Assembly: GCA_049999805.1 (NCBI GenBank)
Contig: JBNGIO010006371.1
Location: 323,260 to 387,259 of the forward strand
From: Folioceros fuciformis
Taxonomy: Eukaryota
Direction: 5' to 3'
DNA: 64,000 nucleotides
In this document: in pieces, positions 2,377 to 56,447 of the stretch
Layout of the letters: every line of letters begins with the position of its first letter
Position numbering within the stretch: the stretch's first letter is position 1
The notes under the pieces: generated by a model
What the model was told of the DNA's origin: nothing
Databases searched by the model: none
The model's input: only the letters and a program-made list of their open reading frames with translations
Made by a program: the position numbers and the translations under genes

Positions 2377-2633
2377 TCTTACGTCATCTGTAAGAGTGTA
2401 AAAGGTATATAATTTAATAAGAAAAGTTTTGTGAGGCAAAATGGATAGGATGCTGCGGCAGCTGATTGGCGGACAAGGGGATTGTGCAGGCATCCAGTGG
2501 CGGGAGGACGCCATGGCGGATGCCCTTTCCTCGCTCTCGTCCGGGAAATCCAGTACTCTCAACCGTCTTCACGCTCCGTCTTGCTTCCTCGACAACTCTC
2601 GCGAAGACCGGCAAGCAGCAGTCAGTAGTAGCC

Positions 2634-3098
2634 ATGGCCGCCTGCACAGCAGCAACCACCTGCGTGGCCGCCGCCGGCCTGCCGACGCTGAAGATGGCGG
2701 CGAGCAGCGCGGGGCTGCGGACCAGCACGTCCGTGCACATGCTGGGGGCGAGGAAGCCGTCGACTGCCCTGCAGAGCGTGAAGTCGCGAGCTCGGACCAC
2801 GTGCGCCGACACTGCTGTGATCGTGAGCGTTAGCACCGGGGCGCTGCTCTTCTTGGGCAGAATCGTGTTTCTGCCCTTCCAGAGAGCGCAGGTGGCCAAG
2901 GCTGGCCTGCCTGTGCAAAACGGCGTCACACACTACGAGGCTGGCGACAGCCGCGCCCAGGAGGTGGTGAGCCTCCTCAAGACCAACGACCCCGCCGGCT
3001 TCACCATCGTCGACGTCCTGGCCTGGGGCGCCCTCGGCCACGCCGTCGCCTTTTTCATCCTGGCCACCGCCTCCAATGGCTACGAGCCCCAGTTCTAG
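2634..3098 (+). CDS. PSAG: Photosystem I reaction centre subunit V (PsaG), chloroplast precursor, intronless
   Basis: Ala/Ser/Thr-rich transit peptide followed by [18 protein letters not shown]...[18 protein letters not shown]...[18 protein letters not shown]...ILATASNGY, typical of PsaG. Confidence 0.95.
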
Positions 3099-5960: not shown

Positions 5961-7652
5961 GGTTTACACTACCTGTGGACAGCACCAAGACGGGGTACAA
6001 CTCGGCCTCCACCGGGATCGTCCCGGAGAGCTCAGCTGGCAGGTAAGGAGCCCGGCCAAGCTTTCGTTCCAAGAGGGCAGCTATCATTCCTAAACCTCAG
6101 ATCCTAGAGAGCGTTCTTGTGTGCGTTCGGTGCGAGGTGGGTTTCTTGGCCGGTGCGGAGTGGCACCCTCCTCCAGTGCAGAACTCGTCTGTCCCTCCGT
6201 CCTCGCATCGCATTTGATGTGTTCAGCTCTGAGCCCATGCGCCGAGTCACGCCAGGGTCGATTGCCGTCCTGGATATCTTGTGGCAGATTGTCTTGCTCT
6301 TGTGTCTCGTTTACGGGAGTGTTTCAAGGTGATTCTTTTCCATGATCCATGCTGTTGGAAGGTAGTGGCTCTTCTTCGCCTCTCTGGCTGCGATCTTGGC
6401 TTGTTTGTGCGCATTTCATTGCAATAGTATGATTTCGCGTTCGTCTGGATGCCATTTGGAAGGTGTTTGTTTCTTAGTCCCATCCCGGATGTCGGTGGTG
6501 GGGGACACTTGTACAATCGTCCAGTATGATGAAGGGCTGACAAGGCGGCGGACTACTGGACGCCGATGGTTGCCAAGGATCTCCGGAAGCAGATCTACAG
6601 CTATGAGTCTGTCATTTCACAAGGTCTGAAACCGAGTTGTTGACCAGCAATCTGGCTACTCCGGGGTTTTGTGTCTTGTGGAATGACAGATCCACAGCTT
6701 CAGGCGTTGTCGATGCCAGTCCGCCACCACTTTCATGCTAGGATGTGCATCGCGGGCGATCCTTCTATCTTAGTGACATTGGCAGTGGCGCATCAAAGAT
6801 TCACTCCGGTTACAGTCTTCGGGGGAACTTGTCGGTGTCGCGAGCAAGGTTTACGCTTGTTAGAATGTTGCAGCCGTTTCAAATGTTCTGCTTAGTACCG
6901 GATTTGTGGATTTGTGTGAGCGATCTGCCACCATCTGAGATCGAAATCAATGTGATCTGTGTGGGAGAATGGACTCGACCTCGTTGCGAGCTGAGCCCTG
7001 GGCAAACGTCCGCAATCATCTCTTGAAGTACATTCCAACTTTTAAGTTGGCTCCGTTGCTCCTTGCCCGAGCTTTCGAGTTTGTATGCACTTCGTCTTGC
7101 TCTGGAACACCGTTAGCGGTGATAGAGATCGTGTGTTCAGAAGTTGACTTGGTTGCACACGACGAAGACACCTGGAGTTGTTCCTCAATACGAAACCGAA
7201 GCTCACTATTATTATAACTTTCTGCTCTCGTACGTTGTGTACCGCTGTTGGCTAAGAAGTGCGCACATGACGTCCAGTCCAGGTTTTACGGCTCGGATTG
7301 CTCTTGTGTGGTGCGAAGGAAGTGTCTCGAAGTACGGCTTATCTTCCTCCTTTCCCTTGGCATTCGAAAGGTATCATCACTCCTGCTCCAGTGTTCCTAT
7401 CCTCCTATCTCCTCGACCTTTAAAATTTCAGGCTTCTCTCTACAAATATCTCCAGCTGTTCAGCACATGCGTGCTGGCCACGCCGAAGGTTCGTTGAACT
7501 GGGGCAAAAGCTTAAAGGCCAGGCTTAAGAAAACAATGCAATGGATGAGTGCTAGAGAATCTGTACAACACCGACATACCATCAGTGTGTAGGTGCAGAA
7601 AACAAATGTGAGAGGATGATTCTCCACTGCAGAAGAATGACAGGCTTCGATA

Positions 7653-8841
7653 TCATACGCCTTTATTGTAGTGGACATGCCTTACAGCTCGACCGTGTCT
7701 GTCAACCCTGTGGTGGAACTCCTGTTCCAACTTCCGGACGTCCACACTTGCCTGCTGCTTGAATATTCCGAACACAAGAGGCACGGCAGCTTGGATTGAG
7801 ATGCCTACTAGGGCCATTAGAGTTGGTGTCTTCATGAATGGTCGACGGGCAAACAGGCTACTGTACTCCAACCTGCACAACGAAACCAAGCAGGACTTCG
7901 AGTTAGAATGAGGAGAAACAAGAGGCACAAATTTGGTCGGGAACTCGACTGCACCTGCATCTCACCTGTGCATGATGAGAGAAGGAATAACAAGAACTGG
8001 AGCAGCAGCAAAGACTCGGCCTCCTATGCAAGCACTCACAGCTCGCAACCCAGCAGCCTTGCTCTGACCAACTTCATCACCGTTGCTGTCATACACTTTG
8101 ATGCCTTGCAGAAATTCATCCCTGCGAGTGATACCAAGGTTGAGCACATCCGCTGCTGCCACTGCAGCGAAGGGTACTAACCTTCGGGCTATGGGCGTCC
8201 TGGAACAAGAACCATGGAGACAGCAAGGAAGGTGGTGACTCAGTGAGCTTGCAGGGCCTACTAGGACCTTTTCAACAGACTCACAGCAGCGTGGGGGTGC
8301 AGGCAAGCTCAGTGGATCCTAACAAGTGACTGGGTCTTTCTTGAGACTGGAGTTTAGGTCTTGCACATTACCAGCGACCCCCAGAAGGCAGTTTATCCAG
8401 GAGGGTGTTCAACCCGACAGCAGCCCCGACAGAGCTGGCTGTAGCTCCAACGTAGGCCTCACCCGCTTTTCGAAGACTCTCGCTGTTTGAAGCATTCCTA
8501 TTGGCATAGTAGTGCAGACAGTTGTACGTCTGGTTGAGCCACTGAGCAGCCACGTTCTGGGTGAGCCCCTTAGCCGACAGCATCAGGGTGTCCAGCACAA
8601 GGTTGCAAGGAATGATAAAGGAAAGCCGCAGTGGCAGCAGAATCTTCTCTCCAGTATCAGGGTGCACCACGGCATCCTTGATTTTCCGGGCCCTTTCCAG
8701 CCTCTGTGCAGGAATGGACGGGTCGTGTGACTTGAGAAGCTCTACAGCGGCGTCCACCTGCTTATCAGTCACAAACGCCGTCCTTATATCCATCATGCTG
8801 AAGATCCTCTGAACCCTCGCCCAGTACGTACCCTCGTCCAT
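7653..8841 (-). CDS. Sideroflexin (SFXN/Mtc/SLC56 family mitochondrial carrier), 3 exons (8841-8372, 8199-7966, 7872-7653)
   Basis: Family motifs: N-terminal DEGTYWAR, VHPDTGEKI, QWLNQTYN..YANRNAS, RLVPFAAVAAA..LNLGITRRDE..QGIKV, and C-terminal YNKGV* (family consensus FNKGL). The GT-AG introns are phase-consistent. An additional upstream exon cannot be excluded. Confidence 0.88.
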
Positions 8842-11800
8842 GACTTGAATCACAAGTCCTCCTCACCATGCGTGCAAAGGGAGCTCCATTCTTACCTCCA
8901 ACACACACTACCAACCACTCTGTGCACCGGAGACGGAAAGAGGAGATCTCCCGTTCCGAGAACTGGGAGACGGCAGCACTTGACGAAGGCCCCGAGGTTA
9001 AATACCTTCTGAAAAGTTTCACGTCACACCACATATCAGTACTACTTTGCTGCCGTGAGCTTCAAAGCCCAGGCTTGAAAACCTCGAGCCGCACCTCAGA
9101 TTAGTAAGTCAACGTGAAGCAGTGACAAAGCCAGCACGCGTTCCACGGACATTTCCAGCTTTCCTCGGGTCATGTTTCTTTCCTCACCCACCAGTGATGT
9201 GCTCCAAGCTGTGGTGGGGATTTTCAGTGCAGACTAGGAAGGTCCAGTCCTGCGGAATTCCGACACAGCTACCCAGCTTCAACGTGCAAGTTGCCACCCT
9301 AGTACCAGTAGATACATGCACTTGTATGTACTGTACGTATTTTGTCCGGGTACAAAAGCAGTAGCCACGTGTCCGGTGCTGCAAATTTCAGAATCAAACA
9401 AAGTCAGGGTGCAGCGATCTTGCTTTGGCCACTCAAGGACGGCCGCGAGCCGTGGTGTCCAGCCTATCGGCCACGTCTGTGCATGTCGGATCCAGAACCT
9501 CGATTCATTCACACGACAAGGGCCGTTTCAATGCGTCCATTCGGTCGATCGGCCATGACGACAACCACTTCTTGAGTCGGGCCGGCCGGTTGGCATACGA
9601 TGCAATGTCGTTGCTGTTGTGTCTGCTTCCGGGTCCCATGTCGGATGGCGTTTCGGAAACCCTTTCCACTCCCAAGTAGGAGTTTGCTTCTTCCATTTCA
9701 GAATGGATTTCGGACTGTAATGGATTTCGGTTTCGATTGATACAGCTGCTGAGGAGCAATGACACACATGGTTGATTAGGGGACTTGTGCCAGAATCGGC
9801 CACACAGGGTGCCCCCCAATTTTGTGATGGCTGGCTCTGCATATATGTATCATCCGACCTCTCTCTGCACAGGGATCTGGTGGCCTCCCTTCCAACTTCC
9901 ATCCAGCCATGGATGCTACCCGTGGTCAATACCATTACTTACTGTGGCAAAACTGCCAAGGCGTTATGCTTAACAATCTTGTACATGGTTGTACGTACTC
10001 TATAAAAATTTTGGAAGAAACCAGGCACGCCTTCAAGTGGATGGGAAAAGTTGGTACGGTACGCGCACACGGTTTGATGTTTCCGGAGGACAGAAGAGTG
10101 AATTTGGTATGCCGGAAGAACATGTTTTTGTATCATTCTAGACTACATTGGAGAAACTGGAGTGGCAAAGACTTCAGTTGCTCATATGGCAGTTCGAAAG
10201 GAGAAGGCTTCAGAGCAAGACAGCTGCAACCTGGAGGATCACCTTCTCTCCCGTTTAGAAAAGTGGTGAAGATCGATCTGTAGCACGGTGGAATGGCAGA
10301 CTTAGCTATGGAGAACTCAATGATTCTTCTGGGCGGGAAGGTGAGGTACCAGAACTGCTGGACGTCCAGGATACAGACTAGGGTTCACACAATGATTTCA
10401 CGAGCCTTTCATACATACGTGGATCCGGAGCGAATCGCGCATTGTGGGTTGTGGAGCATGAGTAACAGGTTCTCCTAATGAGGAGGAATCGCTTCACGAT
10501 CGGATTTGTCAGAGAAGCTGTTCGCAAATCATCTGTTCGCTGCAGGTTGTCCTTGCACACAGACTTGTCTTGACTGTGCATAATATCGACTTTGGCCATG
10601 AATACAACTGTGGGCAGGGGTGCCATTCGTCAGGACTAGTAGAGTGCTTATTGGGAGCACCAGGCCAGCCGATCGAACTGTAACCTTCAAAGATGGATAC
10701 ACCCACCGGGTAAGGCCTCCCTGGAACGTGTCCATGGCGTTATTCGATTCGATCGACCGGGCACACTTTCCGAAGCCAGGGCCGGGCTTCACGGTCCGAG
10801 GTACTTCGTCCCTATTCAGCCTCCTCTTGCCATTTGCCACGGCTCCTGCCACGTCCGCGTGTGCACTATGAGTGTTGACTAGCCTTGGCAGTTAGAACTT
10901 CAACCGTAGTTCCAAACGTCGTACGCTCTTCACTACTACTGACAGTAGGGAATACAACTGCCATGCAGTCTGCCGGCCTGCCGTCCCGCAATCTTTTACA
11001 TCTGGCAGACTCAAACAGGCATCGAAGATCTCGTTCCTGCAAGATTCGGACAAACAGAAGTCCATCCATGATCCTGGCATTTGATGATGCCCTGAGACGT
11101 GGCGTGGACCATAAATGTCCCCGGGCTTTCTGTGCATGCATAGGAGCCGGCCATAGCGATGGGGAAAGGGCGGTGCTCAACCTTCACCAGCATGTTCCCC
11201 AGTCCGATCGTGCACAACGAGCCTACTCTAGACTGGACTTGGCATTCGAATACCGGTTGACGCGGGTCCGCAACAAAAATAGCAGGTCGCAATACGACAA
11301 TGTTCGTGGGCCTGCCCTTACCCAGCCCCATCGACGTCACCTGCGGTTCTCCACGCACATGTCAAGGCCACAGAAATTTCCTTACCACGACCCGAATTAC
11401 GGCCAAGAGAGCACCAAAATAATGCGATTGGTTTGGCTTTCTTCGTCAAATTCGTTGCCGCGAATATCAACTTTGACATCTTGTCGGAATCCTCACTCGG
11501 TTGAGCCAGGACAAATTGGCCTCAAACCTCATGCCCTGATAAGCAATTCACAAGTACCAGATCCTTCATGTACACAAATCATTCTGACTACGGTACCTCA
11601 GCTTGAACATTGGTGAGTGTACAAGAAAGCCGGTAAGAATCATCCTCGAAGTCTTGTCCTCCGGTCCCATATTTAGGTCATCCTCCATTGCTGTCCTCTT
11701 GAAGTCTTTAATAAACAGAATGGATCACTGGCAATGATATGACCTCCACAATCCACGGCCCTCCACCTTAAACCACATTTGAGTGCAAGACAATGAGATG

Positions 11801-18924: not shown

Positions 18925-21900
18925 TCAAGAGCCAAAAGTCCGCATGTGCAGCTGCTTACTGCACAGACGCGTCTTGACCACGTCCGCAACCAAAAACCCA
19001 TGCACTATTCCGCTCATGTCGGTCCACCAGCTCTGGCCTGGCTGCTTCCATGCCCTGATTCTTTTCCTTCTCCTCTGCGTCTCCTGGGCCAGTTCCCACA
19101 TCTGAGCACTGCTATATATGTTTGACATGGACGCATATGCTGCGGCGTTCGTCTGGTCTAGCTTTATTGCTTCCTGAAAGGCGTGGGATCCAACCTCCAC
19201 ATTGTTCCACTTTTGACAAGCACCCAATAGTGTGTGCCACACTGCAGCACCTGGAAGTCCGGGCATTTTTGCTATTAAAGCTAGTGCTTCGTCCAAGTGT
19301 CCTGCACGACCCAGAAGATCCACCATGCATGTGTAGTGGTCCGCTGTGAGAATAACACAACTGCTTCTGCTTATGGCCTCGAAGTACTCTCGTCCCTTGT
19401 CCACGAGACCCGTATGGCTGCATACTGTAAGTACACTCAGGAAGGTGATGTCGTCTGGTTGCTTGCCATCCTCTCTCATTCTGAGAACCAAGTCGAATAC
19501 CTGGTCGCTGTCTCCTTGACGAGTGTATCCAACAATCAATGCATTCCAAACAAAAACATCTCGTTTGGGCAATGCCTCAAACACCTGCTGCGCATCCACC
19601 ATGCTCCCACACTTCCCGTACATGTCTATCAAACTGGCGGCTACGAGCACATCAGCCTGAAGCCCTTGCTCCTTAATCTGTGCATGAAGCTGCCTCCCGA
19701 GGTGTAATGCAGCGACCTTTGCACAGGACTGCAGGAGACAAACAAACGTCACAGAGTCAAGTGCAGCCACTCCTTCATCTTGCATAGCCTTGTAAAGAGC
19801 AAGTGCTTCCTGCCCCAGGCCGTGCTGGGAATACCCTGCTATCATGGAACTCCAGGTCACCACACACTTTTCACCAAGCCTGTCAAACACCTCTCGGGCA
19901 TCCTCCAGGCTGCCGCACTTGATGTACATATTCATTAGACTGCTGGCTACAAAACCATCAGCTTCCAACCGTTCGTCTCTGACACGTTCATGAAGTTGCT
20001 TTCCTGTCTCCAAAGCTAGGATGCCCAAACTTGCACATGCCTGCAGAAGGCTCACAAACATCACAGAATCCGGTGCAACGACACCTTCTCTCTGCATTGC
20101 ACTGTAAAGGTTAAGTGCTTGTTCACCCATGCCCCACTGTGCATACCCTGCTAACAGAGAAGTCCACATCACCACATCCTTTTCATCAAGCCCATCAAAC
20201 ACTTTTCGAGCATCTTCCAAGCTGCCACACTTCGCATACATGTTCACTAAACTGCTGGCTACAAACACATCCACTTCATATCCTTGTTCCCTGATTTGTT
20301 GATGAAGTTGATGCCCCATCTCCAAAGCAGGCGTGCCTACACTGGCACATGCCTGCAGGAGGCTCACAAACGTTGGGGAGTCAGGTGCGGCCATACCTTT
20401 TCCTTGCATATCCCTGTAAAGACAAAGGGCTTCCTGACCCATGCCATTCCGAGAGTAACCTGCGATGAGAGACGTCCACATCACCACATCCTTTTCACCA
20501 CTGCTGTTGAACACGTTTCCAGCATCTTCCAAGCTGCCACACTTCACATACATGTTTACCAGGCTGCTGGCTACAAACACATCGGTTTCATGTCCAAGTT
20601 CCCTGATCAGTGCATGAAGCTGCTTCCCCTTCTCCAAGACCGAGTTCCCCACACTTGCACATGCCTGCAGGAGGCATACAAATGTCACCGAATCAGCAGC
20701 AAAATTGCCGTCTTCTTCCATCGTGCTGTACAGACTGAGGGCTTCCTGCCCCATCCCATGCTGGGAATATCCCGCAATCATGGCGTTCCACGTAATCACA
20801 GATTTCTGACCAAGTCTATCGAACACTTCCCGAGCATGCCGTAGGCTGCCACACTTTGCGTACATATTCACCAGACTGCCAGCTACTACCACATCGGAGA
20901 GCAATCCTTGTTCCCTAATTTGTGCATGAAGCTGTTTTCCCTTCGCCAAAGCTGGGAACCCTAGACCTGCACATGCCTGCAGCAGGCAAACAAAGGTCAC
21001 AGAATCGGGTGCAACAAAGCCTTCCTCTTGCATAGCACGGTAGAGATGAAGGGCTTCGTACCCCACGCCTTGCTGGGAATATCCTGCTATAATGACACTC
21101 CAAGTCACCACATCTTTACGAGGAAGACTGTCAAACACTCTTCGAGAATCTTCCAAGCTGCCACATTTTGCATACATGTCCACCAAGCAACTGCTGACGA
21201 ACAAATCAGGCTCAATGCCAGAAGCCAACACATCACCGTGCACCTGTTTCCCAGATTTCAAGTCTCCTCCCCTCGCACAGGCCTGTAGGGCTGCTACAAA
21301 GACGTGACCATTTGGTTTCACACTTGTCCTGCGCATCGAATGGTACAGTTGTATGGCTTCAGCATACTGTCGGTGTTTCACATGTGCACCAATCACAGCA
21401 CACCATGTAAAGACATCCGGTTCAGAAACCATATCGAACACATCCATAGCTTCTCCCAACCTAGCATGAGAAACGTACATCCGCAGAATGTGGTTGCCCA
21501 AGAACGTGTCCGACCCATACCCCTCCTTCACAATCAAAGCGTGAGTACAACGAGCCAGAGGCAGATCCTTCTTGGCCACGCACTCCTTGAGAACCCTGTA
21601 AAAGAGAGATTTGGGCGAGAGACACAGTGTATGCACCAGGACTCCCAGAGCCTCAACAGCCTCCGTTAGCAGCTCCTGCTGACACAGCTTGCTGACGGTT
21701 TCAACCGTTACATTCCTTTCGTATCCTGCAAGCCTGCCATCCTCCAAGCTCCCGTCCCATCCAGGACAACCAGGAACTATTTGCACATCCAGAGAAGGCG
21801 TCTGCGCAGCAATGGTAGCAGACTTATCCAACTCCCGGGGCTGGAAACCACGAGAACCTTCTCTACAGGAAACAAAATTCGCCACAAGACCACTTGGGCG

Positions 21901-21927
21901 TGTAAAGACCCGTCTCCAGCTAGGCAT
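18925..21927 (-). CDS. PLS-class PPR protein with E1/E2 and WW-type PG box, no DYW deaminase; intronless
   Basis: 1000-aa ORF with repeated P-L-S triplets (DVVTW..MIAGYSQ / PDSVTFVCLLQACA / SSLVNMYAKCGSLEDA), then HYTCMVDLLGRAG, VWHTLLGAC and WKQPGQSWWTD. The ORF ends shortly after VHGFLVAD. Confidence 0.93.
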   Translation of the reverse strand: MPSWRRVFTRPSGLVANFVSCREGSRGFQPRELDKSATIAAQTPSLDVQIVPGCPGWDGSLEDGRLAGYERNVTVETVSKLCQQELLTEAVEALGVLVHTLCLSPKSLFYRVLKECVAKKDLPLARCTHALIVKEGYGSDTFLGNHILRMYVSHARLGEAMDVFDMVSEPDVFTWCAVIGAHVKHRQYAEAIQLYHSMRRTSVKPNGHVFVAALQACARGGDLKSGKQVHGDVLASGIEPDLFVSSCLVDMYAKCGSLEDSRRVFDSLPRKDVVTWSVIIAGYSQQGVGYEALHLYRAMQEEGFVAPDSVTFVCLLQACAGLGFPALAKGKQLHAQIREQGLLSDVVVAGSLVNMYAKCGSLRHAREVFDRLGQKSVITWNAMIAGYSQHGMGQEALSLYSTMEEDGNFAADSVTFVCLLQACASVGNSVLEKGKQLHALIRELGHETDVFVASSLVNMYVKCGSLEDAGNVFNSSGEKDVVMWTSLIAGYSRNGMGQEALCLYRDMQGKGMAAPDSPTFVSLLQACASVGTPALEMGHQLHQQIREQGYEVDVFVASSLVNMYAKCGSLEDARKVFDGLDEKDVVMWTSLLAGYAQWGMGEQALNLYSAMQREGVVAPDSVMFVSLLQACASLGILALETGKQLHERVRDERLEADGFVASSLMNMYIKCGSLEDAREVFDRLGEKCVVTWSSMIAGYSQHGLGQEALALYKAMQDEGVAALDSVTFVCLLQSCAKVAALHLGRQLHAQIKEQGLQADVLVAASLIDMYGKCGSMVDAQQVFEALPKRDVFVWNALIVGYTRQGDSDQVFDLVLRMREDGKQPDDITFLSVLTVCSHTGLVDKGREYFEAISRSSCVILTADHYTCMVDLLGRAGHLDEALALIAKMPGLPGAAVWHTLLGACQKWNNVEVGSHAFQEAIKLDQTNAAAYASMSNIYSSAQMWELAQETQRRRKRIRAWKQPGQSWWTDMSGIVHGFLVADVVKTRLCSKQLHMRTFGS

Positions 21928-22645
21928 CCTCTAAGACGAAATGACTTTCCTCCAGATTGTTGCACGATGCATCTGCGTTGCAAGGCAACAGCTGATTCCT
22001 TAGTAGCACTCCTAGAGGACATGTTATCCTCATAGACAGCCATGGTACATAGGAGCAACAGCTGCGTCTATGGATGCTTGTCTTTCTTGCACAAAGAAAG
22101 GGAATTTGCTTCCCACAAGTATGCCATACGACGAGTCCCCGTCTATCGTTCGGCAGAGTCGGAAACTCAGAGAACACTCAAATAACAGCTTTACTGCAGA
22201 AGTTGTGTATACAGATGGAAAGGAATGGAGTACGTATTTTGAAAACGGGATGGGAAAGGTTTGAAAAAGAGATGAAATTTTTTCTTAAGATGGCATAACA
22301 TAAGTGCACGAATTTAAATTTTGTTGCTTATGATATGGCTTTGAACCTATTTTATAGTCTATAATATTCAATAATTTATGCTAAGATTAGTTCAATTTGT
22401 GGTTTTTAATCATCATGGTCTTATCCTCGCCAACCACCCTTACACATAACTAGGACAAAGTAGCTAGCATTGTTTTACGTTATGCGTTAAGAAAATCAAA
22501 GATTCTAATGAATTTTGCTTTACTTTATTTTACTAGAAAATCAAAGATTCCAACAAACTTTGCTTTTCTTGTATGCTACTAGAAATTCAAACATTCCAAC
22601 AATCTTTGGAACACACCATCAATTTGCCACCACATACACCAATTA

Positions 22646-24834: not shown

Positions 24835-25485
24835 ATTTAGGGCAATATTTGGATAGGAAGTTAGATTCATTTCAAATAATATTCTAATATCTACATGAAT
24901 CTTAAACACCTTAATTGTTAGATGAAGACAATCATGAGTGAGTTTGTTGTTCGATATCTACACGAAATATTAAGTTCTCCATTCTTAAGGTGAATACCTA
25001 GATAGAGTGTGAACGTAGTATGAAGGGCTTAGGGTTTAGGGTTTAGGATTTACACCTAGATAGGTAGGTGTAATGTGTATAGGTATTCAACTATGTTTGT
25101 TTTTTTTTGCAACAGTGAATACCTGTATACATGTTGGTTTGTTGCAATAGCAAAAAAACGGTGACGCCTTGGGGGTTGTTGGGTAGTAATGCTGGATAAG
25201 ACAAGCAAGCAGTATAAAATTGCTGCCCTCGAATCCGTCGAAGTAAAGAGTGCACAAGGTTGGCTTCAAAGCAAAGACAACCGGATCAGTGATCCAAGGT
25301 GCGGGACACAGCTTTGTCCTAGAGGTAGTGGAAAGCGACATGTGGCGCAAGGGAGAACGTCGAGGCTGCCGGGCTTAGCAAGCACGGCCGGCGCCGATAT
25401 CAGCCTTGCCCCAGGAGGAGCATTACAGCGACGTGCACCCAGAGGAAGTTGGGGCTGTATTCTGGAGGAGGCTGTAACGTTGGAC

Positions 25486-40633: not shown

Positions 40634-40887
40634 GCCAAGAGAGAGACTGTCTAAGTCACGTACCTTACAAGGCTGAAAGCCAAGAGACAGACTAGTCTAG
40701 GTCATGTGCCTTAGAGGGCCGAAAGCCAAGAGAGACACTAGTGTAGGTAATGTGCCTTAGAGGGCCGAAAGCCAAGAGAGAGACTAGTCGAGGTCATGTG
40801 CCTTNNNNNNNNNNTGCCTTAGAGGGCCGAAAGCCAAGAGAGAGACTAGTCTAGGTCATGTGTCTTAGAGGGCCGAAAGCCAAGAGA
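40631..40887. repeat. Minisatellite with a unit of about 46 bp (agggccgaaagccaagagagagactagtctaggtcatgtgccttag)
   Basis: Directly visible, with an N gap inside. Confidence 0.85.
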
Positions 40888-41479: not shown

Positions 41480-41820
41480 GAAAAAAAACAACATTGTGAA
41501 TATATGACGACCACATAAATAAGAAAGAAAATAACATTAGGGTGTGACCACCAAATCTTCAAGAAAACAACATTAAGGTGTGACCACCANNNNNNNNNNA
41601 CAACATTAAGGTGTGACCACCACATTTACAAGAAAACAACATTAAGGTGTGACCATCACATCTACAAGAAAACAACATTGGGGCGTGACAACCACATCTA
41701 CAAGAAAACAATATTAGGATATTACCACCAATTTACAAGAAAACAACATTAGGGTGTGACCACCATATCTACAAGAAAACAACACTAGGTAATGGGACCA
41801 CATAAGCAAGAAAATAACAA
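41480..41820. repeat. Minisatellite with a unit of about 37 bp (acaagaaaacaacattaaggtgtgaccaccacatct)
   Basis: Directly visible, with an N gap inside. Confidence 0.85.
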
Positions 41821-42772: not shown

Positions 42773-45700
42773 ATGGCTTGTGGGAGTTGTGGCGAGTTGG
42801 TTATGTTAACGTTCGTGGTGATATGGCTACAGCTTGCGGGCAGGAGCGTGGAGGAGTTTGATGCGAAGCCGGCCTTCGCGTGCGACCGTGCCAGGAATCC
42901 AGATGCTTCGGCCTGGCCTTTTTGCGACACTTCGCTCCTCATCCAGGATCGGGTGAAGGATCTGGTGAGCCGGCTCACCCTGGAGGAGAAGGCGCTGCAG
43001 CTGGGCAACAATGCTCCTGCCATTTCGCGGCTGGGTATCCCGGAGCACGAATGGTGGTCGGAGGCCCTGCACGGCGTGGGATACAGCCCTGGAGTCACGT
43101 TCGGGGGAGCGGTGCCCGGGGCTACCAGCTTCCCGCAAGTCATCCTCACGGCCGCATCTATGAATAGAACGCTGTGGTATCAAATCGCGCAGGTGGGTCA
43201 TGTCACTGGGTGCCCAGCGCTGCTACGTTGTGGTTGTGGTAGTATTAGGACATACCATGTTGTGACAAGTTGGGATGGATACGTTTGTGTTGCTGTGCTA
43301 TCGGCAGGCTGTTTCCACGGAAGGACGAGCTATGTACAACTTGGGGAGGAGCGGGCTCACGTATTGGAGTCCCAACATCAACATCTTCCGGGATCCGAGG
43401 TGGGGGAGAGGGCAGGAGACGCCCGGGGAGGATCCTCGTGTGAACTCCCAGTATGCCAGAAGCTACGCGCGGGGTCTGCAAGGGGAGGAGCTTGAGCTCG
43501 CGTCTGATTCCGATCCCCAATTCCCCTTAGGGCATGACAGGAAGCTGCAACAGGAGAAGGCGGTGGCACCACCACAGTACCTCAAGACGTGTGCGTGCTG
43601 CAAGCATTTCACGGCGTATGATCTGGATCATTGGATGGGCGTGTCCCGATACCACTTCAATGCTGTGGTAAGCGCTAGCTTGATTGCCACGTACTTGTGC
43701 CGCAGGATTGTATGCGGGCTTTGAATAGCAGTGGAACTGGCTCATGACATGGACTAAGAAACGTTTGCGTGCTGGGCATGTGGCGTGTAGATTACTGCTC
43801 AGGATCTTGAAGACACCTACAATGTTCCCTTCAAAAGGTGCGTTGAGGAAGGCCATGCGGCCAGCGTCATGTGCTCCTACAACTCTGTCAATGGAATCCC
43901 CATGTGTGCAGATTACAACCTTGTTACCGGAAAGCTTGTGAACGACTGGCGACTTAGTGGGTGAGTACATGTACAGCCTACTCTGCGCACGGTGCAGTTG
44001 TACCACCTCCGCATGAGAGTCCACGGTTGTGGATTGGGCTAGTTCTGACATTAGCATGCTTCAGTGACATGCTTGGACATCACACAAGTCCGGATGATTG
44101 TCTGTTGTAAGTACGTCTGTTTTGATACATGTGTGTTGTGCGTGCAGATACATTGTTTCTGATTGCAATGCTGTTGGGATTATCCACGACAGCTACAACT
44201 ACACCTACACGCCAGAGGACACAGTGGCAGCTGCACTCCACGCAGGCCTGAACCTTGACTGTGGCACCTACTTCCAAGAGAACATCGTGAGAGCTGTGGA
44301 AACAGGCAAGGTGAACGAGTCCACCGTCGACGGAGCCCTGAGCAACCTCTTCACCGTCCGCATGCGGCTGAGACTGTTCGACGGCGATCCCGCCACCCTG
44401 GATTACGGCAAACTGGGGGTGGAGTCCATATGCAGCCAGGAGCACCAAGCACTGGCGCTGGATGCAGCCAGGCAAGGAATCGTCCTTCTCAAGAACGAGA
44501 ACAGCCTGCTCCCTTTAACCGGCGTTGAATCCTTGGCTCTCATCGGCCCACACGGCGACGCCACAGACGCAATGCTCGGAAACTACTACGGTAAGGTTTT
44601 CTCAGCTGCAATGCAATCCGCATCCGCTGCCTGCAGTGCAACATCCAATACATGTTGGGTACGATGTGACATCCAGCTGAGTGACGAAGTGGGCGCTCAA
44701 TGCGTCTGGCATATGCTTGCAGGCGCCCCCTGCAACTACATAACCCCGAAGCAGGGCCTGGAGGCGTACGCGCAAGTGACCTTCACGCCAGGATGCGAAA
44801 ACGTGGTCTGCGCGGACGACTCAGGAATCAGCGAGGCAGCTACGACTGCAGCACGAGCGGACGTGGCGGTGATCGTGGTAGGCTTGGATAGCGGTCAGGA
44901 GGCGGAGGATCGGGACAGAACCTCCCTCCTGCTTCCCTCAAACCAGCAGAATCTGGTGGAGGACTCGACCGCCGCAGCAGCAGCGGCAGGCAAGCGGGTG
45001 GTGCTGGTCCTCATGTGTGGTGGCCCGCTGGACGTCACCTTCGCCAAGCAGGACGCCCGCATCGAGAGCATCCTGTGGGTGGGCTACCCTGGCCAGTCGG
45101 GCGGCCAGGCTCTGGCAGAGATCCTCTTCGGCCACCACAGCCCCAGTAATCGTTCTCGCCATTCCCCATCCCCCATCCACTGTGCATGCACAAATAAACA
45201 CCCATCCGTCCATGCTTCAACATCCGTGCTTGCCATGCTGCAGGTGGGCGACTCCCCGTGACCTGGTACCCCGAGCAGCTGGCGGAAACGGTGGACATGA
45301 CAAACATGAACATGCGGCCGGACCCGGCAACAAACTACCCCGGCAGGACGTACCGCTTCTACACCGGCGCCACCGTGTACAATTTCGGGCACGGGATTCA
45401 GGGCTACAACGGAAACACCTTCCAGCCCGCCTTCTTGCCAGAGCGCTCGCCCGCCACATTCGATCTTTCAGCAGCTGGTCCTGGCCGCCGAAAATCCGGC
45501 CCCCGCCAGCTGCGCTGCTCTGAGTTGGGGGATGACGATGCACAAAGCGCTGTAGAGCCGCCCAGCTTCCAGCTACACGTGCAGGTGAGCAACAACGGAA
45601 CCAGGGACGGGAGCTACACCGCGTTGCTCTTCACGCAGTCGCCCGCCGCGGGCGCCGACCACGCGCCCTTGAAGGAGCTGGTAGGATTGGAGCGCCTGCA

Positions 45701-45866
45701 CGTCGCTGCTGGCAGCACTGCGCACCATGCCTTCACTATTCGCCCGTGCCATCATCTAAGCACCGTCGCCGCCGACGGCTCTCGCGTCCTCAAGCCGGGT
45801 TTGCATCGCTTCTCCCTCGACCAGAGCTTCCATCAGGTTGCTTTAACCCTTCAGGGTTCCCAGTAG
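42773..45866 (+). CDS. GH3 beta-D-xylosidase (BXL family), copy 2, 6 exons
   Basis: Same motifs and intron positions as copy 1: [56 protein letters not shown] and GRTYRFY. Confidence 0.93.
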
Positions 45867-46607
45867 GAAGGAAAGGTAGCTGAATGACGGATTCGGAAGA
45901 AAGACTGTGAGTAGGAAGGACTGTATACAACAAGGAAGGTCAGAAAGAATAGTTGTAACCATTGAGCCGATAACTAATAAGCTCAAACGATGAGTTTAGT
46001 ATAACAACCCCAAGATAGGCAGAGCTTACACATCGATGTTGGATTAAGTTAGCAGTCTATCTGCATCTGCATAAGAGCTCACACAGAATCGACCAATAGA
46101 TGCTTGTATGAAATGGTTTGGAGAGTTGAGAAGGAGATGGAGTCCAAACCCAAACGTTTTAAGCCTGGCTTTAGTCCCACAAAACCTACGTTATCAACAT
46201 GGAATTACAAGGAACAGGAAGACATGGACGAAGGAGATGGTAAGGAGGGAGACTGAAGTTTGCAATGGCACGAGGGTGAAGGCGCTAAAGGAAACACGTT
46301 CTTGTACTCTCGGACTCAAATCCGCATGATTTTTAGTCTTGAGCATTCTGATAGCGAGAGCCTCCCTTGATAAAAGTTGAAATTGCTCCTATAAATCATC
46401 TACATTGGGAGCAAGACCGGGCGTCGAACCTCGGGTGCTGCGTCAGTACGTTGGGTGGTAGACAGATTGATGCATCTGCTGGCTTGGGTGAGGTGTTTGG
46501 AATTTGGTAGCTCGGAAGACAGTAAGGGGAAATGTGGAGCCAGGCAGGCGATTTGCCTGTAGCAGCAGGTCCTTGCAGGAGGGAGACAAATGTGAGGTTG
46601 GAGACAC

Positions 46608-49600
46608 ATGCCGTGGGCAGTGACCGGGGTTTGCTGTCTTGCATTCGAATGCTCAGCTCAGAGTTTGCTCCTGCAAGGCATGGGTGTTTTGGTAAGAGCT
46701 TCCGTCCTCCGGATTTCCAGGAAGCAACCGTCGACGCACAACCAAGTCGGGAGGTGCAGCAGCACCCTTGCAGCACACCCAGCAGGTGGTGTCTGTGAGA
46801 GGAGGTTAGCACGTAATTCGGACCGTGACAGAGATGGTGCTTACGATGTGGGCGTGACGGCTGAAACAGTGCACAGACTATGTGATGAGGGGCATGTCAC
46901 GGAGGCCGTCGAGGCTTTGGAGTTTCTGGTGCACACGGGTCGTTTTGTCACCAAAGCTCTGCTTTATGCTGTGTTGAAGAAATGTGTTGTGAAGAAGGAT
47001 CTTGCTCTGGGTAGCCGTGTGCATGCCTTCACTTTGAGAAAGGGGTACCAGGCGGACACGTTCTTGTGCAACCACATCCTGCGGATGTATGCTTCTCATG
47101 GCAGGCTGCAGGACGCGATGGATGTGTTTGAAGGTGTTGCCCAACCAGATTCCTTTATGTGGTCTTCCATCATCTCTGCACATGTTCGACAAGGGCAGGA
47201 CACGCAGGCGTTACAGCTGTATCATCGGATGCGGGGGTCTGGTGTGAAGCCAGATGGCCATGTATTTGTGGCAGCACTTCAGGCCTGCATCAGAGGATTA
47301 GACCTGAAATCTGGGCAGCAGGTGCATGCTGATGTGTTGGCCAGTGGCATCAAGCCAGATTTGTTTGTATGTAACGGCTTGGTGAACATGTATGGAAAGT
47401 GTGGCAGATTGGAGAGTGCGCAGGGAGTTTTTGATGGACTTAGCAAGAAAGACGTTGTGACATGGACTGCAATGATCGCAGGATATTCCCAGCAGGGCAT
47501 GGGTCAGAAAGCCCTCACTCTCTACGCTGCAATGCAACAGGAAGGCTTTGTTGTACCCAATTCGGTGACATTCGTGTGCCTCTTGCAGGCGTGTGCTAGT
47601 GTGGGCGCCCTGGCATTGGAGAAAGGGAGGCAGCTTCATGCACAAATCAGAGAAAGAAGACAACAGGATGATGTTCCTGTAGCTAACAGTTTGATAAACA
47701 TGTATGCAAAGTGCGGCAGCTTGGAAGATGCTCAGAGAGTGTTTGATGGGCTTTGTCAAAAGGATGTAGTGACGTGGAATGCCTTGATAGCTGGGTATTC
47801 CCAGCAGGGAATGGGGCATGTAGCTCTTGGTCTGTATAGTGCTATGCAAGAAGAAGGGATTGTTGTACCTGATGCTGTGACATTTGTGTGCCTCCTACAC
47901 GCTTGTGCCAGTGTCGGAACACTGGCCTTGAAGAAGGGGGTGCAGCTTCATGAGCAAATTAAGGAACAACGACTTCAAGCTGATGTGCTTATAGCTGACA
48001 GTTTGGTGAAGATGTATGCAAAGTGTGGCAGCATGCAAGATGCACAGAGGGAGTTTGATGGACTTAGAAACAAGGATGTACTGACGTGGACTGCAATGAT
48101 AGCAGGATATTCCCAGCAGGGCATGGGGCAGGAAGCCCTTTGCCTGTACAGTGATATGCAAGAAGAAGGCGTGGCTGTCCCCAATGCAGTGACATTTGTG
48201 TGCCTCCTACAGTCATGTGCAATTTTAGGCACCCCTGCACTGGAAACAGGGGTGCGTCTCCATGCTCAAATCCAAGAACGGGGACATGAAGCTGACTTGT
48301 TTGTAGTCAGCAGTTTGGTGAACATGTATGCAAAATGCGGCAGCTTGGAATCTGCTCAAAGAGTGTTTGATGAACTAAGTGCCAAAGACGTGATAACCTG
48401 GAATGCCTTGATAGCAGGTTATTCCCAGCAGAGGATGGGGCAGGAAGCTCTTCATCTGTACAGTGCAATGCAAGACGAAGGCATGGTTTTACCTGATTCC
48501 GTAACTTTTGTGTCCCTCCTGCAGGCATGTGCGAGTGTGGGGACTGCAGCACTGGAAACGGGGAAGCAGCTTCATATGCAGATCAAGGAACAAGGGTATC
48601 ATGCTGATCTCTTTGTAGCCAGCAGTTTGGTAAACATGTATGTCAAGTGTGGCAGCTTGGAAGATGGACAGGACGTGTTTGATAGACTTGGTCACAAAAA
48701 TGTGGTGACATGGAATGCCATGATTGGAGGGTATTCTCAGCAGGGCTTGGGGCAAGAAGCCCTTCGTCTCTATGCTGCAATGCAAAGAGACGGCAGGGTT
48801 GTACCAGATTCTGTCACATTTGTGTGCCTCTTGCAGGCATGTGCAGGTCTGGGCAACCTGGCATTGGAGACAGGGAAGCAGCTTCATGCAGAAGTCAATG
48901 AACGAGGACTCCAAGCGGATCTGTTCATAGCTGATAGCTTGGTGAACATGTATGCAAAGTGTGGTAGCATGGACGGTGCTCAGAGAGTGTTCAACGCCAC
49001 TTCGCCAAAAACTGTGGTGATGTGGACTGCAATGATAGCAGGATACTCCCAGCATGGCATGGGACAGGAGGCCCTTCGTCTCTACAGTGTTATGCAAGAA
49101 GAAGGCATGGCTGTGCCCAGTTCTGTCACATTTGTGTCTCTCCTGCAGGCCTGTGCAACTGTGGGCACTGCAGCCTTGGAGGAGGGAAGAAGTCTCCACA
49201 GGCAAATCAGAGAAGGAGGACATGAAACCGATGTGTGTATAGCCAGCGGTCTGGTGAACATGTATGCAAAGTGTGGCAGCTTGGAAGATGCGCAGAGAGT
49301 GTTTGACTCACTTGGTCAAAAAAACGTGGTGACATGGAATGCTATCATATCAGGGTATGCGCAGCAGGGTATGGGGCATGAATCCCTCCATCTCTTCAGA
49401 GCTATGCAAGCTGAAGGCGTGACTGTACCCGACTCTGTGACGTTTGTGTCTCTCCTGCAGGCATGTGCAAGTGTTGGCACCCTGGAATTGGGGACTGGGA
49501 AGCAACTTCATGCACTAATCGAAGGGGGAGGACATGAAGCTGATGTGTTTGTAGCCAGCAGTCTGGTAAATATGTACGCCAAATGTGGCAGCTTGGAAGA

Positions 49601-50864
49601 TGCAGAGAGGGTATTCCACGGAACTCGTCAGAAAAATGTGGTGACTTGGAATGCCATGATAGCAGGGTATTCCCAGGAGGGCATGGTGCAGGAGGCCCTT
49701 CATCTCTACAGTGCTATGCAAGCAGAAGGCATGGCTGCTGATCCCGTGACATTCGTTTGCCTCCTGCATGCATGTGTAAGTGTAGGCTCTGCAGCATTGG
49801 AGGAGGGAAGGTGGCTTCATACGCGTATCAGACAGCAAGGACTTCAAGGTGATGTGTTCGTAGCCAGCAGTGTAGTGAACATGTATGCAAAGTGTGGCAA
49901 CTTAGAAGATGCTCAAAAAGTGTTCGCCACACTCGGTCAGAAAGACGTGGTAACGTGGAATGCGTTGATATCAGGGTATTCCCAGCAGGGTATGGGACAG
50001 GAAGCCCTTCGGCTGTACAGTGCTATGCAAGACGAAGGCACGGTTGTACCTGATTCCGTGACGTTCGTGTGCCTCTTGCAGGCATGTGCAAATGTGGCAG
50101 CCTTGGGTGTGGGAGCACAGTTGCACTCGCAGATTGTAGAGCAGGGGCTCGAAGCTGACTTGTTTGTAGCCGGCAGTTTGATCAACATGTATGGGAAGTC
50201 TGGGAGCATGATTGACGCACAGCAGGTGTTCGATGAACTGCCCGAAAGAGACATTGTAATCTGGAATGCTCTGATCGCAGGCTACACCTGTGAAGGACAC
50301 AGTAAAGTGGTCTTCGAGTTGGTCCAGAAAATGCAACAGGATGGCATGCAGCCAGACAGTATCACATTCCTCAGTGTACTGACAGTGTGCAGTCACAGAG
50401 GACTGGTGAAGGAGGGGCGGGAGCACTTCGAAGCAATGAGCAGACACCACGGCATAGTTCCCACGGAAAACCACTACACGTGCATGGTGGATCTCCTGGG
50501 CCGCGCAGGACAAGTGGATGAAGCGCTATGTATTGTAAGTAGCATGCCGTTACTGCCCAATGCTGCAATCTGGCACACACTGCTGGGGGCTTGTCGAATG
50601 TGGGGCAACGTGGAAGTCGGACTCCATGCTTTCAATGAAGCAGTGAAGCTAGACAACAAAGACCCTGCAGCATATGTATTGATGTCGAACATCTACACCA
50701 GTGCTCAGATGCAGCAGGGGGCACAAAGGATGCAGGCCAGACGAAAAAGGATCAGGGCATGGAAGCAGCCGGGCCAGAGCTGGTGGACCGACAGGGAAGG
50801 ACTGGTGCACAGTTTCTTGGTTGGGAATGAGAAGCATCCACAGCATCTAGCAATGCCTGGATAA
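46608..50864 (+). CDS. Very long PLS-class PPR protein with E1/E2 and WW-type PG box, no DYW deaminase; intronless
   Basis: 1418-aa ORF of P-L-S triplets ending HYTCMVDLLGRAG...WKQPGQSWWTDREGLVHSFLVGNEKHPQ. It is a paralogue of 18925..21927. The start codon choice is uncertain. Confidence 0.93.
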   Translation: MPWAVTGVCCLAFECSAQSLLLQGMGVLVRASVLRISRKQPSTHNQVGRCSSTLAAHPAGGVCERRLARNSDRDRDGAYDVGVTAETVHRLCDEGHVTEAVEALEFLVHTGRFVTKALLYAVLKKCVVKKDLALGSRVHAFTLRKGYQADTFLCNHILRMYASHGRLQDAMDVFEGVAQPDSFMWSSIISAHVRQGQDTQALQLYHRMRGSGVKPDGHVFVAALQACIRGLDLKSGQQVHADVLASGIKPDLFVCNGLVNMYGKCGRLESAQGVFDGLSKKDVVTWTAMIAGYSQQGMGQKALTLYAAMQQEGFVVPNSVTFVCLLQACASVGALALEKGRQLHAQIRERRQQDDVPVANSLINMYAKCGSLEDAQRVFDGLCQKDVVTWNALIAGYSQQGMGHVALGLYSAMQEEGIVVPDAVTFVCLLHACASVGTLALKKGVQLHEQIKEQRLQADVLIADSLVKMYAKCGSMQDAQREFDGLRNKDVLTWTAMIAGYSQQGMGQEALCLYSDMQEEGVAVPNAVTFVCLLQSCAILGTPALETGVRLHAQIQERGHEADLFVVSSLVNMYAKCGSLESAQRVFDELSAKDVITWNALIAGYSQQRMGQEALHLYSAMQDEGMVLPDSVTFVSLLQACASVGTAALETGKQLHMQIKEQGYHADLFVASSLVNMYVKCGSLEDGQDVFDRLGHKNVVTWNAMIGGYSQQGLGQEALRLYAAMQRDGRVVPDSVTFVCLLQACAGLGNLALETGKQLHAEVNERGLQADLFIADSLVNMYAKCGSMDGAQRVFNATSPKTVVMWTAMIAGYSQHGMGQEALRLYSVMQEEGMAVPSSVTFVSLLQACATVGTAALEEGRSLHRQIREGGHETDVCIASGLVNMYAKCGSLEDAQRVFDSLGQKNVVTWNAIISGYAQQGMGHESLHLFRAMQAEGVTVPDSVTFVSLLQACASVGTLELGTGKQLHALIEGGGHEADVFVASSLVNMYAKCGSLEDAERVFHGTRQKNVVTWNAMIAGYSQEGMVQEALHLYSAMQAEGMAADPVTFVCLLHACVSVGSAALEEGRWLHTRIRQQGLQGDVFVASSVVNMYAKCGNLEDAQKVFATLGQKDVVTWNALISGYSQQGMGQEALRLYSAMQDEGTVVPDSVTFVCLLQACANVAALGVGAQLHSQIVEQGLEADLFVAGSLINMYGKSGSMIDAQQVFDELPERDIVIWNALIAGYTCEGHSKVVFELVQKMQQDGMQPDSITFLSVLTVCSHRGLVKEGREHFEAMSRHHGIVPTENHYTCMVDLLGRAGQVDEALCIVSSMPLLPNAAIWHTLLGACRMWGNVEVGLHAFNEAVKLDNKDPAAYVLMSNIYTSAQMQQGAQRMQARRKRIRAWKQPGQSWWTDREGLVHSFLVGNEKHPQHLAMPG

Positions 50865-55900: not shown

Positions 55901-56447
55901 CTTTCTCTCCTAGCTAGTAGCTAAGTGTGCCAATTGTTGAAGAGGTACCTTTCTCTCCTAGCCAGTGGCTAAGTGTGCCAATTGTTCAACAGGGGTCTTT
56001 CTCTCCTAGCCTCTGGCTAAGTGTGCCAAATGTTCAATAGGGTCCTTTCTCTTCTAGCCAGTGGCTAAGTGCGTCAATGTGTGCCAATTGTTCAAAAAGG
56101 TCCTTTCTCTCCTCGCTAGTGGCTAAGTGTGCCAATTGTTCAACAAGGTTCTTTCTCTCCTAGCTAGTGGCTAAGTGTGCCAATTATTCAACAGGGTCCT
56201 TTCTCTCCTAACTAGTGGCTAAGTGTGCCAATTGTTCAACAAGGTCCTTTCTCTCCTAGCNNNNNNNNNNAGTGGCTAAGTGTGCCAATTGTTCAACAAG
56301 GTCCTTTCTCTCCTAGCCAGTGGCTAAGTGTGCCAATTGTTCAACAGGATCCTTTCTCTCCTAGCTAGTGGCTAAGTGTGCCAATTGTTCAACAGGATCC
56401 TTTCTCTCCTAGCCAGTGGCTAAGTGTGCCAATTGTTCAACAAGGGC
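55901..56447. repeat. 48-bp minisatellite (ctttctctcctagccagtggctaagtgtgccaattgttcaacagggtc)
   Basis: Unit starts at 55901, 55949 and onward; near-identical copies with an N gap inside. Confidence 0.9.

Follow-up and report, generated by a model that had tools for sequence, protein, structure and literature searches.

An intact sideroflexin gene in Folioceros fuciformis, probably transcribed and of vertical descent within the streptophytes

A 64,000-nucleotide stretch of Folioceros fuciformis DNA (contig JBNGIO010006371.1 of assembly GCA_049999805.1, positions 323,260 to 387,259 of the forward strand), referred to below as the window, was found to carry a nuclear sideroflexin gene. We put at about 75% the probability that this gene is the orthologue of the sideroflexin genes of mosses, liverworts, lycophytes and streptophyte algae, that it was inherited vertically, is transcribed and spliced, and encodes a protein that works by the carrier mechanism proposed below. 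Sideroflexins (SLC56) are mitochondrial membrane carriers.

Results

Gene structure and transcript

The sideroflexin gene lies on the minus strand, as do all of its parts described here, and extends from the ATG at 8841 to the end of the stop codon at 7653, as read directly in the sequence. In-silico splicing of three coding exons yielded a coding sequence of 924 nt, which encodes 307 amino acids with the frame intact. Coding exon 1 (8372..8841) encodes residues 1-156 and two bases of codon 157 and contains the N-lobe, the HPDT motif and the predicted transmembrane helices TM1-TM3. Coding exon 2 (7966..8199) contains TM4 with Asp174, the C-lobe strands and TM5 with Arg218, while coding exon 3 (7653..7872) contains TM6, C-lobe sequence and the C-terminal NKGV and ends with the stop codon. 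The coding exons are separated by two GT..AG introns of 172 nt (intron 1, 8200..8371) and 93 nt (intron 2, 7873..7965).

A single contig of 1858 nt from sequencing run X3 aligned to 7450-9150 with zero differences and with all three GT-AG introns spliced out. Run X3 belongs to another study than the likely source of the DNA, contains 73% of the sampled words and is presumed to be RNA. The contig covered coding exon 1 with a piece at 8371-9008 (identity 100%) and coding exon 2 with a piece at 7964-8198, and introns 1 and 2 were absent from it (joints 8198/8371, cut +1, and 7870/7964, cut +2). A third joint, 9008/9095, marked an 86-nt GT..AG intron within the 5' UTR (9009..9094), the donor and acceptor of which were read in the sequence. 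All of the skipped stretches (3/3) begin with CT and end with AC on the plus strand, or GT..AG as read on the gene strand. Runs X1 and X2, which are DNA and may be the source of the window, contain the whole stretch, and the X1 contig over the gene was unspliced. Absence of all three introns from the X3 contig confirms the coding model and adds to the transcript a fourth exon, 5' and non-coding. The original prediction of a three-exon gene therefore stands for the coding exons but not for the transcript. These results indicate that the gene is transcribed and spliced, X3 being presumed RNA.

The non-coding first exon (9095..9211) comprises the X3 piece 9095-9150 and 61 more bases; its upper end is an estimate, and a transcript 5' end near 9211 holds if these X3 bases past 9150 stay colinear. 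The 5' UTR portion of the first coding exon (8842..9008) contains two upstream ATGs, with one uORF of 8 codons (8889-8863) and another of 34 codons (8869-8765) that overlaps the main ATG. The list of open reading frames also includes an ORF at 8765-9061 in this 5' region. The 3' UTR (7003..7652) is approximately 650 nt long, with a lower end estimated from the X3 contig, which spans 7450-7870 and has 447 further bases past 7450 that were taken as colinear.

A G-box upstream of the gene had also been reported. The G-box/ABRE-like element GCCACGTGTC is indeed located at 9364..9373 (unstranded), approximately 155 nt upstream of where the transcript is estimated to start, but CACGTG occurs in the window at chance frequency (10 observed versus 13.0 expected). 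The element has no evidential weight and was rejected as a meaningful regulatory feature.

Family membership and motifs

Each exon translation was submitted separately to Pfam, and all three matched PF03820 (Sideroflexins; gathering cut-off 22 bits). Exon 1 matched profile positions 8-163 of 319 (E 1e-39, 136.7 bits), exon 2 positions 172-246 (E 1.6e-24, 86.9 bits) and exon 3 positions 250-318 (E 2.1e-14, 53.6 bits). The matches were in colinear order and together covered 8-318 of 319, and no other Pfam family was matched. As judged from the translations, this agreement is far beyond chance.

The window protein contains HPDTGE at residues 60-65, before TM1, and the HPDT motif is described as a sideroflexin feature (PMC7761412; 10.64898/2026.06.18.732944). 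The Asn-rich TM2 motif NQTYNCLHYYANRN occupies residues 103-116, and the TM4 motif VPFAAVAAAD, which includes PFAAV, residues 165-174. The protein terminates in YNKGV, with NKGV at 304-307 followed by the stop codon; the C-terminal consensus given for sideroflexins is FNKGL (PMC7761412). Hydropathy analysis revealed four clear hydrophobic stretches. The coordinates of the gene in the original prediction were exact, and its description of an intact frame with the HPDTGE, TM2, VPFAAVAAA and NKG(L/V) motifs agrees with the colinear PF03820 match. That prediction had further regarded the segments LRLSFIIPCN and NCLHYYANR as divergent. Both proved to be the same, or almost the same, in every embryophyte orthologue aligned and close in oomycetes, so in the alignment they are typical of the streptophyte clade and not peculiar to the window gene.

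Relatives and distribution in plants

A protein-database search with exon 1 (longer proteins) returned 57 listed matches. Exon-1 identity was highest to Diphasiastrum complanatum (80%), Sphagnum (79%), Ceratodon (78%) and Selaginella (76%; annotated as 'sideroflexin-5'), followed by Marchantia paleacea (71%), a EukProt entry taken as Spirogloea (71%), Riccia (69%) and Chlorokybus (61%). Oomycetes showed 45-51% and animal SFXN5-like proteins 37-41%. Over the full length, identity to the window protein was 74.6% for Diphasiastrum, Sphagnum and Ceratodon, 70.8% for Selaginella, 67.8% for the Spirogloea row, approximately 66% for liverworts, 61.6% for Chlorokybus, 48-49% for oomycetes and 35-38% for animal SFXN5. 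A profile built from 15 of the exon-1 matches gave 172 proteins at E<=1e-10 (120 of them listed), and the plants named among these 120 were confined to the bryophytes, lycophytes and streptophyte algae already obtained in the exon-1 search. Cluster look-ups added Physcomitrium patens (A9STX9), named 'sideroflexin-like' at NCBI, where the Selaginella protein is named 'sideroflexin-5', and the liverwort Calypogeia fissa, with Diphylleia rotans as a near outgroup.

Among the annotated proteins listed (57 from the exon-1 search and 120 of 172 from the profile search), no fern, gymnosperm or angiosperm was named. A control search with a neighbouring LRR receptor kinase returned mostly angiosperms, together with Cryptomeria, Taxus, Ginkgo- and Pinus-type identifiers and the fern Adiantum, at 27-37% identity to the named plants listed (best match 46%). 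The database thus holds seed-plant and fern proteomes, and their absence from the sideroflexin matches listed is meaningful. This agrees with a 2025 review in Hum Genomics, which gives one SFXN gene each for P. patens and S. moellendorffii and no annotated one for angiosperms or gymnosperms (PMC12180156). The earlier suggestion that angiosperms lack sideroflexins was thus upheld by the matches listed, by the positive kinase control and by that review.

Structure and substrate-pocket residues

An AlphaFold2 model of the Diphasiastrum orthologue (74.6% identical to the window protein) had a mean pLDDT of 86 and a pTM of 0.78. It contains four N-terminal helices (H6-16, 19-23, 26-40 and 48-61), six long helices and strands at E193-196, 202-206, 278-282 and 303-307. 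The model of the orthologue agrees with the architecture described for the cryo-EM structure of SFXN1, which is monomeric and combines four short helices in an N-lobe, six TM helices and two pairs of strands in a C-lobe (10.64898/2026.06.18.732944). A PDB sequence search with exon 1 gave no match at E<=0.01, and a Foldseek search of the Diphasiastrum model against the PDB gave none at E<=0.001 (best TM approximately 0.2). The SFXN1 preprint likewise reports no related solved fold (10.64898/2026.06.18.732944).

In the same preprint, the mid-membrane pocket of SFXN1 is described as consisting of Q96, N100, N124, N128, V185, N189, R233, A237 and L276. R197 and Q289 hold the C-terminal K320-G321-L322, which forms the cytoplasmic gate, and R233 toggles (10.64898/2026.06.18.732944). 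Residues were mapped onto the window protein from the motif strings and numbers of the preprint, without alignment to the human sequence, with offsets of -20/-21 before TM3 and -15 after it. By this mapping, six of the nine pocket residues are kept (N100 as N80, N124 as N103, N128 as N107, V185 as V170, R233 as R218 and A237 as A222) and three are changed: Q96 to I76, N189 to D174 and, conservatively and by offset only, L276 to I261. Outside the pocket, N192 (N177), R197 (R182), Q289 (Q274), K320 (K305) and G321 (G306) are kept, and L322 is conservatively replaced by V307.

The exchange at Asp174 concerns a residue with an assigned role, N189 of SFXN1 being one of five whose mutation to Ala abolished ligand stabilisation (10.64898/2026.06.18.732944). 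The pocket Asp was present in 16/16 readable rows on the streptophyte, stramenopile and Diphylleia side of the alignment and in 0/8 on the animal, fungal, Euglena and Rhodelphis side, where the residue was Asn in four rows, Gly in two, His in one and Ser in one. At the Asn of TM1 (IIPCN), plants keep the residue of SFXN1, and animal SFXN5 rows have Gly (PFG).

Proposed function

By analogy with animal and yeast sideroflexins, the protein would lack a cleavable presequence and insert into the inner membrane of mitochondria. At its N-terminus the window protein aligned with homologues of oomycetes, fungi and animals from residue 1 onwards, with no added transit peptide, and this colinearity fits the presequence-free import via TIM22 described for sideroflexins (PMC7761412). 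Once inserted, it would transport small neutral amino acids, as modelled on SFXN1, as a monomeric uniporter with six helices and an alternating-access mechanism. Asn80, Asn103, Asn107, Val170 and Asp174 would surround the substrate mid-membrane, and Arg218 would act as a toggle, engaging either the pocket or the carboxylate of the C-terminal anchor Lys305-Gly306-Val307. The presence of Asp174 in place of Asn189 of SFXN1 may shift the substrate, for which serine, glycine, alanine, proline, GABA, branched-chain amino acids and citrate are candidates. SFXN1 is reported to enable transport of many neutral amino acids (10.1101/2025.06.18.660357) and is implicated in mitochondrial serine and glycine permeability (10.1101/2025.06.18.660357; PMC7761412).

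The choice of substrate also gives rise to the most serious alternative, which we regard as unlikely though deserving of weight, namely that the protein is an SFXN5-like carrier of a solute other than serine or glycine (citrate or another tricarboxylate, GABA or some other solute) and has no particular role in one-carbon metabolism or in photorespiration. The numbered animal proteins among the matches listed were all SFXN5-type (16/16 among 120 and 5/5 among 57), and SFXN1-type proteins were absent from the matches listed in the exon-1 and profile searches. Plant SFXNs are reported to be most similar to human SFXN5, which is proposed to modulate citrate (PMC12180156), and SFXN5 partially rescues GABA phenotypes (10.1101/2025.06.18.660357). 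The Asp in place of Asn at position 174 also favours such a carrier. However, in a maximum-likelihood (ML) tree of 43 rows (LG+C20+F+G4 PMSF; support as ultrafast bootstrap/SH-aLRT), animal SFXN5 and fungi were separated from the plant sideroflexins by a 100/100 branch; as it samples neither SFXN1-4 nor Fsf1, the tree does not establish orthology to SFXN5. The window protein neither grouped with animal SFXN5 in this tree nor shared its site residues, and the TM1 Asn common to plants and SFXN1 is replaced by Gly in animal SFXN5. Serine transport, moreover, is reported to be rescued by SFXN2, by SFXN3 and by the homologues from yeast and fly but not by SFXN4 or SFXN5 (PMC7761412), and the rescue by the yeast and fly homologues argues against the SFXN5-like carrier.

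Improbable in our estimation is a role as the long-sought photorespiratory mitochondrial serine/glycine carrier, at least in seed-free plants. Such a role would extend, by analogy, the link of SFXN1 to the permeability of mitochondria to serine and glycine. Against it stand the closer similarity to SFXN5, which is disputed in substrate and fails to rescue serine transport (PMC7761412), than to SFXN1/3, and the seed plants and ferns, which photorespire yet are without a sideroflexin among the matches listed. Since seed plants photorespire without an annotated sideroflexin, the protein cannot be the general plant Gly/Ser carrier; another carrier must serve there, and probably does so here too. 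According to PMC12180156, which is the only report on sideroflexin in bryophytes found in the literature searched, evidence of a plant serine carrier resembling SFXN1 is lacking. The same literature search found no report that joins sideroflexin with photorespiration, Marchantia or hornwort. In the barley and maize papers found, sideroflexin occurred only in the reference lists, in the entry for Attwood & Schioth 2021, itself without plant terms.

A broader proposal, which we consider speculative and quite doubtful, is that the sideroflexins of streptophytes, stramenopiles and Diphylleia form an 'Asp-type' subfamily in which the invariant pocket Asp would confer another substrate or coupling. 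Its members would carry mitochondrial amino-acid flux in seed-free plants, possibly photorespiratory serine and glycine, and this flux would have been re-routed by the ancestor of seed plants, perhaps also of ferns, when the gene was lost.

Phylogeny and origin

The 43-row tree bears equally on the reading that we prefer, in which the gene is an orthologue inherited vertically. Streptophytes formed a clade (97/93) with Chlorokybus basal, within which Zygnematophyceae and embryophytes grouped together (99/94), as did the embryophytes, the window protein among them (85/71). Inside the embryophyte group, mosses (95/86) and liverworts (100/100) were recovered as clades, with the window protein, Diphasiastrum and Selaginella in a polytomy. 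Oomycetes (100/99) and labyrinthulids (100/99) formed separate clades. The bootstrap of this tree was not fully converged (correlation 0.985), and the shortened Mesotaenium and long-branched Diacronema rows were omitted; a quick ML tree of 57 rows agreed with it. The branching order mirrors the species tree, which indicates vertical inheritance followed by later loss. The original prediction had left the choice between an ancestral carrier retained in seed-free plants and a horizontal acquisition, and had called for a phylogeny with fungal, oomycete and algal sequences. With such rows included, the window protein fell within the embryophyte and streptophyte clades, with the oomycetes outside, so that vertical descent of an ancestral carrier was retained and horizontal acquisition was rejected.

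The surroundings of the gene were surveyed by Pfam on 124 ORFs of >=110 aa in the window. The survey yielded PsaG/PsaK (2466-3095), a class III peroxidase (13.2-14.1 kb), two PPR proteins that lack introns and have an E motif (18928-21930, minus strand, and 46596-50861, plus strand) and an LRR receptor kinase (25165-28440), as well as a kinesin fragment, two GH3 genes, NBR1, a pectinesterase and a copia gag. The window is thus land-plant DNA, and contamination, already thought unlikely from the plant surroundings, is not an issue. In addition, run X4, which is DNA of a related species (organism B), contained an orthologue at 90-95% DNA identity, with the match ending at 9128.

An origin by horizontal acquisition from an oomycete, a fungus or another eukaryote, or by contaminant DNA in the assembly, is accordingly very improbable. 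Oomycetes were the best named non-plant matches among those listed (45-51% on exon 1), and the patchiness of a family missing from seed plants could be counted for such an origin, but it is contradicted by a single streptophyte clade in species-tree order (Chlorokybus, Zygnematophyceae, embryophytes) with oomycetes outside, by spliceosomal introns and plant neighbours on one contig, and by the orthologue in organism B. Horizontal transfer and contamination were both rejected on the ML tree, the introns and the plant neighbours.

Between the window gene and the orthologue in organism B, 15/22 visible changed codons in exons 2-3 were synonymous (40 of 91 differences were visible), a bias that hints at purifying selection on the gene. 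That the gene is silent or decaying and, as in seed plants, heading for loss is hardly credible: loss of the family in at least one plant lineage and the two upstream ATGs in the 5' UTR may be counted for it, but the frame is intact over the full Pfam profile, all family motifs are kept, the X3 contig is spliced and the codon changes are biased toward synonymous ones, and a pseudogene was rejected on the frame, the motifs and the spliced contig.

Discussion

The occurrence of sideroflexin in bryophytes and lycophytes and its absence from seed plants are already published, and the window gene is an ordinary one, a further orthologue of a group already reported. The novelty that the original prediction attached to a plant sideroflexin is thus not sustained, since the moss and lycophyte genes and the seed-plant absence are present in PMC12180156. 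Beyond that review, the present analysis adds the absence of ferns from the matches listed and the clade-wide change from Asn to Asp at the mapped pocket position. From the fern absence among the matches listed, loss of sideroflexin may predate seed plants. No published report of localisation, knock-out or transport assay of a plant sideroflexin was found in the literature searched. The genetic models Marchantia, Physcomitrium and Anthoceros carry or may carry a sideroflexin gene, and it would be an easy knock-out target in bryophytes.

Comparison with known sideroflexins

Human SFXN1 (SLC56A1), a mitochondrial carrier of serine and neutral amino acids, and the window protein share the HPDT motif, the Asn-rich TM2, the PFAAV of TM4, the Arg toggle and a C-terminal anchor of NKG plus a hydrophobic residue. 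An N-lobe, six TM helices and a C-lobe appear to be common to both as well, as predicted by the model of the orthologue. The window protein differs in being 15 residues shorter and in having Asp174 for N189, Ile76 for Q96 and Val307 for L322. Animal SFXN5 (SLC56A5, the 'tricarboxylate carrier' BBG-TCC) is the nearest animal paralogue by similarity among the matches listed (35-38%), yet it has Gly at the TM1 Asn site and Asn where plants have Asp174, and the 100/100 branch lies between the two.

The sideroflexins of oomycetes, labyrinthulids and Diphylleia rotans are closer, with a TM2 motif of the HYYANRNASN type, the pocket Asp and 48-56% identity. Those of oomycetes and labyrinthulids nevertheless form clades separate from the streptophytes, and some oomycete sideroflexins have a long C-terminal extension or an ELO domain fused to them. 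The closest likeness is to the sideroflexins of embryophytes and streptophyte algae. Although the window protein falls outside the moss, liverwort and lycophyte subclades of the embryophyte group, its 307 amino acids compare with 303-313 in embryophytes, and it shares with these proteins the same motifs, the pocket Asp, 66-75% identity and the same clade.

Genomic neighbourhood of the sideroflexin gene

Located within the same window as the sideroflexin gene are several other protein-coding genes. An LRR receptor kinase is encoded on the forward strand at 25165-28440 in a single open frame of 1092 codons. Its top database match was just 46% identical, and identity to the named plants among the matches listed was 27-37%; the named proteomes therefore include none that is closely related to this organism. 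PPR genes with a C-terminal E motif are present twice, both long and intronless, in stop-to-stop ORFs at 18928-21930 (minus strand, 1001 aa) and 46596-50861 (plus strand, 1422 aa). PPR proteins of the E-motif type have been linked to RNA editing in the organelles of land plants. Two glycoside hydrolase family 3 (GH3) genes, at 33743-37031 and 43266-45863, both encode GH3 N and C domains and an Fn3-like domain. They lie on the same (plus) strand, spaced ~9 kb apart, and the pair probably arose by tandem duplication.

The gag ORF of a copia-type LTR retrotransposon (62827-63999, plus strand) extends to the window end. None of the six N runs in the window, which mark assembly gaps of 100 bases (1185-1284 and 61481-61580) or 10 bases (37428-37437, 40805-40814, 41590-41599 and 56261-56270), is close to the sideroflexin gene.

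Upstream ORFs of the sideroflexin transcript

Two upstream ATGs precede the main start codon in the transcript, within its 5' UTR (8765-8889, minus strand). The first opens a uORF of 8 codons (8889-8863) that shares the frame of the main ORF and is closed by a TGA, and the second opens a uORF of 34 codons (8869-8765) that lies in a different frame and overlaps the main start codon. These uORFs could reflect translational control or could be noise.

Comparison with other sideroflexins

Some oomycete sideroflexins matched by exon 1 (P0016, P0017 and P0028) are annotated as fusions. One form, of 869-920 aa, has a long coiled-coil-like tail, and the other, of 629 aa, has an ELO domain (PF01151). 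Merged gene models or genuine fusions could each account for these annotations.

The substrate-pocket position occupied by Asp174 in the window protein maps to N189, a residue named in a cryo-EM preprint on human SFXN1 (10.64898/2026.06.18.732944). Asp was found here in all streptophyte, oomycete, labyrinthulid and Diphylleia sideroflexins readable at this site in the alignment, and these "Asp-type" proteins also grouped in the 43-row ML tree, all falling on the same side of a 100/100 branch. In the same alignment, the residue was Asn in the animal SFXN5 rows and Gly in fungi.
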